Positions 9,151 through 10,497 of a stretch of 64,000 bases of DNA are shown in pieces. Position 1 is the stretch's first letter, and the number at the start of each line of letters is the position of its first letter. Both the position numbers and the translations under genes were made by a program. Under the pieces are notes generated by a model. The model searched no databases. It was not told where the DNA came from and saw only the letters and a program-made list of their open reading frames with translations. The stretch lies in IMG/VR virus record IMGVR_UViG_3300042866_001263; one strand, 5' to 3'. The stretch comes from a virus (lineage: Duplodnaviria > Caudoviricetes).

Positions 9151-9413
9151 ACTCAGATCCACACGGCAATTGGTGCGTTTACTATTGTAAAAAAACTGAC
9201 ACTACTGCATGGAGCGTAATGAAATTACGACGTAGTGATGGTGTCATCGTATCAGCAAAAACTTATAATGATGCTTTTAAATTTGTCAAATATCAAGATG
9301 CATTTGATTTTGTTAGACAACTAATTACAGAAGAACCAGAACCAAAATATGATGCAACTGTAAAGAGAATTTGTCTTGCCAGAGAAGATGCTTTTTATCT
9401 TTCAGAAAATTAA
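9147..9413 (+). CDS. hypothetical protein
   Basis: Coupled ORF with ATGA overlap. Confidence 0.65.
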   Translation: MNSDPHGNWCVYYCKKTDTTAWSVMKLRRSDGVIVSAKTYNDAFKFVKYQDAFDFVRQLITEEPEPKYDATVKRICLAREDAFYLSEN

Positions 9414-9415
9414 AC

Positions 9416-9447
9416 TGTATTCAAATTTACAAAGTTTGTATTATAAT
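9416..9447 (+). promoter_or_regulatory. NtcA box (TGTA-N8-TACA) overlapping the -35 region of a sigma70 promoter
   Basis: TGTATTCAAATTTACA 9416-9431; TATAAT 9442-9447. Confidence 0.7.
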
Positions 9448-9455
9448 TAGATATA

Positions 9456-9678
9456 CGTTCATTCGCTATTTCCAAATAGCGAACGGAAGTAAGACAACTC
9501 GGAACGGGTCGTTCATCTATGGAGACACTCATTCTCACATGCTTACAAGCACACTTGATTGCTGGGAGAGTTAATAAACAAGACATTCCCAGGCAAGCAA
9601 AGAATGATTTGATATGGGAGATCAAACAGATATCTCCAAAGGAGTGTAAGATAGACGCAAAGGTTGACTGAAGGAACG
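9456..9678 (+). ncRNA. tandem glutamine-riboswitch-like aptamers (glnA / Downstream-peptide family)
   Basis: Two CGTTC...GAACG P1 helices (9456-9506, 9510-9678), GGAAGTAAG and GACTGAAGGAACG core motifs, P2 hairpins. Confidence 0.75.
9519..9671 (+). CDS. 50-aa ORF nested inside the second aptamer
   Basis: METLILTCLQAHLIAGRVNKQDIPRQAKNDLIWEIKQISPKECKIDAKVD. Confidence 0.55.
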   Translation: METLILTCLQAHLIAGRVNKQDIPRQAKNDLIWEIKQISPKECKIDAKVD

Positions 9679-9711
9679 CTCTTTAACCTAAACAACTAAG
9701 GAGAACCTCCC

Positions 9712-9861
9712 ATGTCACAAGCAACATATCGTGGTGTTCAATATGACACCGAAACAAAAAGAGAACAACTAGCAGCAAACTGGCTTCCAGTTATCCAAAA
9801 ACAAATTGAAAAACAGAATAAATTAAAAGAGGCACAACTTGCCATGGCGATGAAAATGTGA
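9712..9861 (+). CDS. DUF4278-like (YRG motif) peptide, 49 aa
   Basis: MSQATYRGVQYDT...; AAGGAG RBS at 9698-9703. Confidence 0.75.
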   Translation: MSQATYRGVQYDTETKREQLAANWLPVIQKQIEKQNKLKEAQLAMAMKM

Positions 9862-9873
9862 TATAATATATTT

Positions 9874-9915
9874 CCGTGTGAAGGAAGTGATGGGGAGGCG
9901 AAAGTCTCCCCTTTT
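9874..9915 (+). ncRNA. candidate ~42-nt sRNA ending in a terminator
   Basis: TTGCCA(9839)-17-TATAAT(9862); hairpin GGGGAGGC-GAAA-GTCTCCCC-TTTT 9892-9915. Confidence 0.45.
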
Positions 9916-9928
9916 ATTTTGATAAAAA

Positions 9929-10474
9929 ATGAATTTTATACATCATCTAAAAGAAGCCTATCCAAAATCATCTTGCGAAAAGATGATAGAAATATTTGAC
10001 CAGAACAGTCCTTTCGCTGTAAGAGGAACTGCTGGAAAAGAATACCTTGATGACTTAGAATTAACTTTAGAAATTACAGATGCAGATTGCTATTCTGGAC
10101 TGGGAACAGCAGTTTATAAAGCAGTTGATGAATATAAAATTGTGTATCCATTAATCAATACTCACATCTCAAACTGGAAAGTAAATCCATATTGTCAGCT
10201 GATGAGATATGAACCTAACAATTATTATAGTAGGATACATTGTGAGAATGATGGAACCCCAGAATTCTCGACAAGAGTTTTTGCTTGGATGATCTATTTG
10301 AATGACATCCGAGAGGGAGGAGGAACACATTTCGTTTATCAAAATTTTACAGCACAACCAGTAGCAGGAGATCTTTATATTTGGCCTGCTCACTGGACGC
10401 ACTTTCATCATGGAGTTAATGCTCCATATGAAAAAAAGTATATTATAACTGGTTGGGTTGATTATGTGTTATAA
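9929..10474 (+). CDS. 2OG-Fe(II) oxygenase
   Basis: HxE...RVFAWMIYLND...GGGTHF...HFHHG...KYIITGW. Confidence 0.9.
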   Translation: MNFIHHLKEAYPKSSCEKMIEIFDQNSPFAVRGTAGKEYLDDLELTLEITDADCYSGLGTAVYKAVDEYKIVYPLINTHISNWKVNPYCQLMRYEPNNYYSRIHCENDGTPEFSTRVFAWMIYLNDIREGGGTHFVYQNFTAQPVAGDLYIWPAHWTHFHHGVNAPYEKKYIITGWVDYVL

Positions 10475-10497
10475 TTAGTAGTGTATGTCATGCTACC

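Follow-up and report, generated by a model that had tools for sequence, protein, structure and literature searches.

Phages and prophages of enterohaemorrhagic Escherichia coli encode AgvB and AsxR, which act as sponges of small RNAs (sRNAs), and the 3′ external transcribed spacer of the E. coli glyW-cysT-leuZ tRNA operon sponges the sRNAs RyhB and RybB. T4-type phages contain promoter-early stem-loop (PeSL) cassettes, gene-shuffling recombination motifs that occur in multiple copies and have no conserved transcribed seed. In cyanobacteria, the members of the Yfr2 family (RF01701, Cyano-1) are short RNAs with a conserved, unpaired 5′ GUGUG and a terminator, and Yfr2 pairs with a non-coding RNA (PMC6778093, PMC2662882). 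We analyzed a 64,000-nucleotide (nt) stretch of viral DNA (IMG/VR record IMGVR_UViG_3300042866_001263), hereafter the window, which is part of a T4-like cyanomyovirus from lake water. Positions 9839 to 9920 of the window hold a promoter, a 13-nt core and a terminator, together called the unit, which may well be a single-copy gene for a trans-acting RNA of ~44 nt with the layout 5′-(UUCC)GUGUGAAGGAAGU, spacer and terminator hairpin. From the complementarity of the core, the phage probably acts on the GUG-reading tRNA-Val of its host and not on the host RNA Yfr1, the target favored by an earlier, sequence-only reading of the window.

The phage RNA is like Yfr2 in being short, in its unpaired 5′ GUGUG and in its terminator, but it has neither the long bulged helix nor the conserved 12-nt loop of that family (PMC2662882) and measures ~44 nt, compared with a reported ~80 nt for Synechocystis Yfr2a. 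Its core, or seed, contains two extra A that make it perfect for tRNA-Val(CAC), whereas host Yfr2 is perfect for Yfr1. As a short phage-borne RNA that would pair with a host non-coding RNA it resembles AgvB, AsxR and SprY of Staphylococcus aureus (PMC12197685); those RNAs are aimed at regulatory sRNAs, whereas the perfect partner here is a tRNA anticodon arm, and a text search of a 2025 review of phage small RNAs for "tRNA" and "anticodon" found neither word. T-box leaders (RF00230) also read a specific tRNA through anticodon pairing. They do so with a 3-nt codon plus one base in a cis leader of ~200 nt that also binds the acceptor end, unlike the 13- to 17-nt antisense of a 44-nt trans RNA, and cmscan of positions 9300 to 10100 gave no T-box match at E ≤ 10. 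Copies of the unit linked to tRNA genes would be released by tRNA processing like the glyW-cysT-leuZ spacer, which is, however, neither antisense to a tRNA nor phage-borne. With PeSL cassettes the unit shares a host-type promoter and a stem-loop in a small intergenic module found at variable sites of T4-like genomes, but it is single-copy and defined by an invariant 13-nt transcribed core. Rfam 15 holds no family for the unit, and its motif string was not found in a relevant context in the literature searched. For cyanophages, the literature searched on small RNAs, including the 2025 review, yielded only CfrI and Rfam-predicted motifs. The gene for this ~44-nt RNA thus appears to be undescribed so far.

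In the window, the unit consists of the following parts.

9839 to 9844, + strand: −35 hexamer TTGCCA, within the L-A codons of the conserved C terminus (AQLAMAMK) of the upstream open reading frame (ORF)
9859 to 9867, + strand: extended −10 TGaTATAAT, whose first three bases are the TGA stop codon (9859 to 9861) of ORF 9712 to 9861
9872 to 9875, + strand: TTCC, the initially transcribed bases or predicted start region, which extends the complementarity to tRNA-Val(CAC) to positions 39 to 42
9876 to 9888, + strand: the 13-nt core (seed) GTGTGAAGGAAGT, invariant across phage units
9889 to 9891, + strand: variable spacer, GAT here and 0 to 25 nt long in other units
9892 to 9920, + strand: intrinsic terminator with an 8-bp GC-rich stem, a GAAA loop and then TTTTATTTT, which also ends the upstream riboswitch operon

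The sequence-only reading had placed TTGCCA at 9839 to 9844, a 17-nt spacer and TATAAT at 9862 to 9867, and all three are found there. In addition, TATAAT is preceded by TG at 9859 and 9860, which makes it an extended −10. With 11 of 12 positions matched, 9839 to 9867 is the top promoter-like site within 8.5 to 11.5 kb of the window. TTGCCA, TTGCAA or TTGTAA also occurs at the equivalent spot of homologous ORFs that lack the unit, indicating that the −35 hexamer is partly a consequence of coding. After TGaTATAAT the sequence reads ATATTTCC, GTGTGAAGGAAGT, GAT and the hairpin, so that the −10 hexamer sits 8 nt ahead of the core; the hairpin arms GGGGAGGC-GAAA-GTCTCCCC occupy 9892 to 9911, with TTTTATTTT directly after them. 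The predicted RNA fold (−19.3 kcal/mol, z = −3.6) leaves the first 10 nt free and comprises a free 5′ end and a single 8-bp terminator hairpin, nothing else. The window contains a single copy of the unit.

Sigma-70 consensus sites with at least 11 of 12 matches number 12 in the window against 2.8 expected, 11 of them on the + strand, and three of the 12, including the promoter of the unit, bear the TGn extension (0.23 expected). This excess over expectation shows that host-type sigma-70 promoters form a genuine class in this phage. Ten more such sites on the + strand, at 2627, 4185, 13956, 17294, 19668, 29611, 30115, 54985, 58228 and 60564, are candidate early promoters.

We pooled 149 distinct units from cyanomyovirus contigs and isolates, including Syn9, Syn19, S-SM2, S-RIM8, S-SKS1 and S-CREM1. 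Their anatomy fits the proposal made from the window alone, a ~42-nt RNA in which an unpaired GUGUGAAGGAAGU forms the 5′ end ahead of a terminator hairpin, with the invariant core at the predicted 5′ end. The conservation check in related phages suggested in the same place also came out positive, as the whole core, including both A residues that had been taken to bulge, is invariant in the 149 units, a sample biased by the search patterns at positions −4 to +9 but not at +10 to +13. The terminator, by contrast, is kept as a structure and not as a sequence: there are 125 distinct spacer-plus-hairpin sequences among the 149 units, each ending in a run of T. Measured from the core through the end of the T-run, the units have a median length of 44 nt, and 102 of the 149 minimum-energy folds leave the first 10 nt unpaired. 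Judging from these contigs and isolates, the family is spread through cyanomyoviruses of Synechococcus-type hosts.

The limits of the invariant part were defined by several scans. At least 119 IMG/VR viral contigs contain the 16-mer TTCCGTGTGAAGGAAG. Of its distinct contexts, about half combine a strong promoter 4 to 6 nt upstream with a downstream terminator, ~17 lie directly against the 3′ end of a tRNA gene, and nine are unrelated tRNA-Val genes on the opposite strand. In promoter-anchored scans every element-like match continued ...TGAAGGAAGT, and in relaxed scans all bases after TTCCGTG, as well as AAGT after GTGTGAAGG, were fixed. The four bases preceding the core are not constant: in 87 contexts anchored on TGATATAAT, TTCC was seen 35 times, TTAC 21, ATCC 20 and GTCC five, and the invariant part is therefore the 13-mer GTGTGAAGGAAGT. 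We also considered a 6-bp hairpin, ACTTCC-GTGTGAA-GGAAGT, that would present GUGUGAA in the manner of a tRNA-His-like anticodon loop or UGU mimic, but its UUCC/GGAA stem is not conserved. A degenerate glutamine aptamer, part of which GGAAGU..GGCGAAAGUC resembles, gave no covariance-model match.

The core begins 6 to 10 nt after the −10 hexamer, where transcription is expected to start. Among the 149 units, the 5′ end is provided by an extended −10 (TGnTAnnnT) in 113, by a late promoter in seven and by the 3′ end of a tRNA in 13. A late promoter of the T4 type, (C/A)TAAATA, is located 7 to 9 nt ahead of the core in Syn9, Syn19, S-RIM8 and several contigs; the Syn9 core is at NC_008296 119424 to 119436, between gp134 and gp135. 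Promoterless copies directly abut a phage tRNA gene, mostly tRNA-Thr(UGU) (anticodon loops judged by eye). Units recur within phage tRNA clusters, and in DSL-LC02 and S-SKS1 the unit is inside such a cluster with a tRNA gene next downstream. Units are most often located just behind g23, the major capsid gene, and there too the stop codon of the gene forms TGATATAAT. In a few contigs (L093, L130 and L154; L-numbers are labels of the compared contigs or loci) the core is a 5′ leader immediately before an ATG. Syn9, S-CREM1, DSL-LC02, S-SM2, Syn19, S-SKS1 and S-RIM8 carry exactly one copy each. When 2.5 Mb of cyanophage DNA was screened for units composed of an extended −10, a 12- to 42-nt leader and a terminator, 100 of the 103 found had the core, and the remaining three had other leaders, none of them recurrent. 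The same core start at varied sites, reached by three 5′-end routes, is the pattern of a gene for a discrete RNA starting with GUGUG, and it is hard to explain by a DNA site or a mere terminator. We consider it very probable that the unit is a real small RNA gene.

In one sub-lineage of the unit (L479; RN05-S, which is L441; L288 and L297), the seed ends in C (GTGTGAAGGAAGC) and the spacer is longer. One of them, L479, reads GTGTAAAGGAAGC, the complement of a UAC instead of a CAC anticodon, and may be a retargeted or a mutated copy.

Matches to the core were sought in 301 Cyanobiaceae genomes, a set reached via Prochlorococcus genomes with the Yfr1 sequence of PMC2190773. The 13-mer occurs once per genome in 189 of them, nearly all larger than ~1.9 Mb, whereas a reversed-pattern control gave ~0. 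All 30 host sites inspected lie in one tRNA gene, on the reverse strand of GGGCGAUUAGCACAGCGGUAGCGC-A-CUUCC-UUCACAC-GGAAG-G..., and ARAGORN identified tRNA-Val with the anticodon CAC in the four loci tested. The core is the perfect antisense of positions 26 to 38 of this tRNA, that is, A26, the 5′ strand of the anticodon stem and the entire anticodon loop. In the window, TTCC lengthens the complementarity to position 42, for a total of 17 nt.

The tRNA-Val(CAC) arm is the sole exact match to the 13-mer in the host genomes inspected, and host matches with up to two mismatches stay at the level of the reversed-pattern control. Of the recurrent near matches, just one was traced to an RNA gene, that of tRNA-Val(GAC); another, GTGAGCAGGAAGT, is in a stretch without an Rfam match, and a third host near match, GTGTGCAGGAGGT, suspected to be a Yfr2 5′ end, sits in unrelated coding genes. 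As determined with a context-anchored pattern, the CAC arm is invariant wherever present, except in one divergent genome (G053). Small genomes of Prochlorococcus size show only a tRNA-Val(GAC)-type arm, and the exact CAC arm was not found in the small genomes searched. The phage string that matches G053, GTGTGAAGCAAG, was found solely in five related contigs, where it is a 5′ leader without a terminator. In L574, L576, L578, L579 and L581, a promoter and GTGTGAAGCAAGT, near-complementary to the variant tRNA-Val(CAC) arm of G053, form the 5′ leader of an ORF (MSKFKKPTKKEIK...) without a terminator. No convincing family emerged when seeds against tRNA-Val(GAC) or tRNA-Val(UAC) were sought behind TATAAT, most matches being due to chance. 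By nearest-neighbor energies, the seed pairs with the tRNA arm at −20.9 kcal/mol as a 13-mer and −28.5 kcal/mol as a 17-mer, and in the window no 13-mers other than the site and those overlapping it pair with the arm as well.

The unit was found in eight of 11 Synechococcus phage isolates (Syn9, S-CREM1, DSL-LC02, S-SM2, Syn19, S-SKS1, S-RIM8 and RN05-S, the last with C as the final seed base) but in none of eight Prochlorococcus phages (Fisher p = 0.003, the isolates not being phylogenetically independent). One-mismatch matches in S-PM2 and Prochlorococcus phages turned out to be coding DNA with neither promoter nor terminator. The host range of the isolates, a small sample, fits tRNA-Val(CAC) as the likely target.

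Population data came from the DNA contigs of four lake metagenome runs of different studies, taken at 85% identity or more. Across 9693 to 10015 these contigs have 27 substitution sites and several insertions or deletions. No variant was found at 9876 to 9888, even though variants flank it on both sides, and the sole variant in 9859 to 9867 is T9864G, which turns TATAAT into TAGAAT as in L037, L038 and L055. Loose ends of the contigs join other hairpins and another upstream context to the identical core. As far as assembled contigs go, the lake data support conservation of the core. In two of the runs (X13 and X15), contig depth summed over 9832 to 9887, the stretch with the promoter and seed, is 3 to 5 times that of the flanks, and contigs link the unit to a different sequence upstream; the unit seems to be shared by several phage genotypes that occur together.

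Codon use differs strongly between phage and host. GUG makes up 12% of Val codons (8.3 per 1000) in 38 ORFs of the window and 49 to 58% (31 to 36 per 1000) in a crude set of ORFs on the GC-rich host loci, about a fourfold difference. Loss of the GUG-reading tRNA would therefore hurt host messages more. The 14 tRNAs of the window all read A/U-rich codon families, and no tRNA-Val is present among them or in the examined part of the S-CREM1 cluster.

We put at about even the chance that the ~44-nt RNA acts on tRNA-Val(CAC). The RNA would be made early from its own host-type promoter, and it would also form the 3′ end of longer transcripts: the riboswitch-operon mRNA in the window and, in many phages, the g23 mRNA, which is very abundant. 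Pairing would start between the free 5′ end of the RNA and the exposed 7-nt anticodon loop and then invade the anticodon stem. The GUG-specific tRNA-Val could thereby be sequestered, blocked in decoding or aminoacylation, or exposed to nuclease cleavage, and host translation would be slowed more than phage translation. Tentatively, then, a dedicated "anti-tRNA" RNA of Synechococcus cyanomyoviruses might disable tRNA-Val(CAC) or mark it for cleavage, shifting translation away from GUG-rich host transcripts and towards GUG-poor phage messages.

Several points weigh against this proposal. Within the folded tRNA the arm is engaged in base pairs and tertiary structure, and it carries modifications. 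When co-folding was charged for opening the tRNA secondary structure, the net gain fell to between −12.2 and −16.7 kcal/mol, near the −11.6 kcal/mol obtained with accessible Yfr1, so that energetics alone do not separate the two partners; tertiary structure and modifications of the arm would lower the gain further. tRNAs are abundant, and titrating one stoichiometrically needs very high RNA levels, while tRNA-Val(UAC) may still decode GUG by wobble. Copies behind late promoters fit poorly with an early host shut-off, and three of the 11 Synechococcus phage isolates are without the unit. The host arm is invariant, hence there is no co-variation to draw on, and identity with the tRNA could have been inherited from a captured gene fragment instead of being selected for pairing. 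The case for the tRNA as the probable target rests on the exactness, uniqueness and distribution of the match.

The closest named phages to the window are the fresh- or brackish-water Synechococcus phages DSL-LC03, DSL-LC02, S-SRM01 and S-CREM1, and the locus is present in lake and freshwater metagenomes only. The unit ends a glutamine-riboswitch cassette, which starts with a promoter at 9420 to 9447 and a glnA-type aptamer at 9454 to 9510 (34.4 bits; gathering score 35). Two genes adjoin the unit.

9712 to 9861, + strand: ORF of 49 amino acids (aa) with a YRG motif, the output gene of the glutamine-riboswitch cassette, whose transcript would run through the seed to the common terminator
9929 to 10474, + strand: 2OG-Fe(II) oxygenase gene (Pfam PF13640, 1.9e-9), outside the unit

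The 49-aa ORF has no Pfam match at E ≤ 0.01. Its homologues in S-CREM1, DSL-LC03, DSL-LC02, S-SRM01 and ~55 IMG/VR contigs are followed by a GC hairpin and T-run 3 to 12 nt downstream. The window forms a subclade with L012, L037, L038, L042 and L055, in which ~30 extra bases separate the stop codon from the hairpin; within this insert TGA-TA[T/G]AAT-ATA-[C/T]TTCC-GTGTGAAGGAAGT is conserved and the hairpin sequences differ. In these five relatives the unit is followed by a TATAAT promoter and the MDKERLK gene (ORF 10498 of the window), with no oxygenase, and oxygenase homologues elsewhere have unrelated DNA upstream. On this comparison, the oxygenase gene is an insertion specific to the lineage of the window, placed behind the terminator. 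The oxygenase region, 9921 to 10497, took the place of the promoter that follows the terminator in L012, L037 and L055; lacking a recognizable promoter or Shine-Dalgarno sequence, the gene would rely on read-through of the small-RNA terminator. Other units are followed by various genes, which as a rule have an early or late promoter of their own.

A second glutamine aptamer, at 9511 to 9681, appears to be split into a 5′ half, CGTTCATCTAT, and a 3′ half, ATAGACGCAAAGGTTGACTGAAGGAACGC, with ~130 nt between them. The insert carries, at the position of the aptamer hairpin, a conserved 50-aa ORF at 9519 to 9671 (METLILTCLQAHLIAGRV...KECKIDAKVD) that has no Pfam match. The split form is also present in DSL-LC03, DSL-LC02 and S-SRM01, whereas the second aptamer of S-CREM1 is compact and normal. 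In L015, L041, L047, L067, L075 and others, the small ORF is followed by a terminator/promoter cassette in which TTGACA is the hairpin loop and the T-run is followed by TGnTATGAT, resembling the PeSL modules of T4-type phages.

The sequence-only reading had seen in the unit a possible sponge that titrates Yfr1 or Yfr10, or a Yfr2 mimic. The targets of Yfr1 and Yfr10 would be relieved or rewired by pairing of the phage RNA with their single-stranded ACUCCUCACAC. Its statement that Yfr1 carries this motif was confirmed, and the motif is indeed unpaired (PMC2190773); Yfr2 is known to sequester Yfr1 and Yfr10 via its 5′ motif (PMC6778093), and the phage seed and Yfr2, which reads GUGUGUAGGAGAGG in high-light Prochlorococcus, both begin with GUGUG at the RNA 5′ end. 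The claimed 11-nt pairing exists, through two bulged A, but it is not exceptional: the seed-Yfr1 duplex of −13.1 kcal/mol in MED4 is in the top 0.125% of 13-mers of the window, yet 160 of 127,974 pair equally well or better. The duplexes of the seed with Yfr1 have 9 to 11 bp and one or two bulges. With Yfr1 of five Synechococcus-type genomes the energy is −12.2 kcal/mol, as compared with −16.0 kcal/mol for Yfr2 of high-light Prochlorococcus and −32.3 kcal/mol for Yfr2 of the Synechococcus type. The latter, GGGGUGUGAGGAGUG in genomes of the Synechococcus/Cyanobium type, is a perfect 15-nt anti-Yfr1, on which a selected mimic would be expected to converge. Instead, both A that must bulge for Yfr1 are invariant and are exactly those needed for perfect complementarity to tRNA-Val(CAC). 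The Yfr1 motif equals the arm of that tRNA, ACUUCCUUCACAC, minus two U (host loci L453 to L457 compared with L388 to L417), and the phage seed thus partly fits Yfr1, a fit explicable as a by-product. In the cmscan of 9300 to 10100 neither a Yfr family nor Cyano-1 was found at E ≤ 10, the Cyano-1 model (RF01701) finding host copies at 35 to 70 bits. The unit is absent from the eight Prochlorococcus phages despite the presence of Yfr1 (RF01116), Yfr10 and Yfr2 in their hosts. Even with a net co-folding gain close to that of the tRNA, titration of Yfr1 or Yfr10 is weakly backed by these data, and we regard it as improbable. A real small RNA might also have other partners, such as host or phage mRNAs recognized through 7- to 10-nt seeds, the Shine-Dalgarno-like AAGGAAGU, or a protein, its tRNA identity reflecting ancestry from an inverted tRNA-Val fragment. 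Bacterial small RNAs usually target mRNAs via short seeds, AAGGAAGUG is one base off the consensus Shine-Dalgarno sequence, the core is placed right before an ATG in the few contigs mentioned above, and units shift between genomic sites as morons do. A relic, however, would not be expected to remain identical to the host arm over 13 to 17 nt in 149 diverged units or to track the host range of tRNA-Val(CAC), and near matches in the hosts are no commoner than those of the reversed-pattern control. Such partners are conceivable but rather unlikely.

It could also be that the unit is no gene at all but the terminator of the riboswitch operon, a promoter arising as a by-product of coding sequence and stop codon, or a leader or attenuator of the oxygenase gene. 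In relatives a hairpin occupies the same position directly after the small ORF, the −35 hexamer lies within conserved codons and the TGA is a stop codon. The oxygenase, having no recognizable promoter of its own, must depend on read-through, and a 10-codon ORF (ATG at 9890 to TGA at 9920 to 9922) overlaps the hairpin. This mini-ORF is not conserved, because the hairpin sequences differ, and the combination of promoter, core and terminator recurs behind g23 and other ORFs, behind late promoters and in tRNA clusters, with unrelated genes downstream. Nor was the oxygenase leader, raised in the sequence-only reading as an alternative, borne out, since the closest relatives carry the unit with no oxygenase gene behind it. 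We find these explanations scarcely credible. Nearly as doubtful is an element acting as DNA, either an operator at the transcription start, bound by a protein, or a recombination cassette like the PeSL modules. The unit is found at different sites, gene content changes next to it, as with the oxygenase insertion, TTGACA forms the hairpin loop in the terminator/promoter cassettes of relatives, and the raised metagenome depth over 9832 to 9887 looks as if several genotypes share the unit. But a single copy per genome leaves the unit without a partner in the same genome, its orientation to promoter and terminator never changes, and the core is not palindromic. The copies that abut tRNAs are promoterless yet keep the core, which speaks for an RNA product.

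Marine and lake viromes contain the family in abundance, and it also occurs in cultures that are amenable to genetics, such as Syn9 growing on Synechococcus WH8102 or WH8109. Even with another target, it would be a widespread and sharply defined cyanophage small RNA. If action on tRNA-Val(CAC) is true, it would represent an RNA-only, codon-selective host shut-off that complements the A/U-decoding tRNA set of the phage. It would then be a new viral route to reprogram translation, by an antisense RNA against one host tRNA and not by a nuclease, a modification enzyme or extra tRNAs, and it would link three factors of known importance in marine phage ecology, the codon mismatch between AT-rich cyanophages and GC-rich Synechococcus, phage tRNA clusters and host shut-off.

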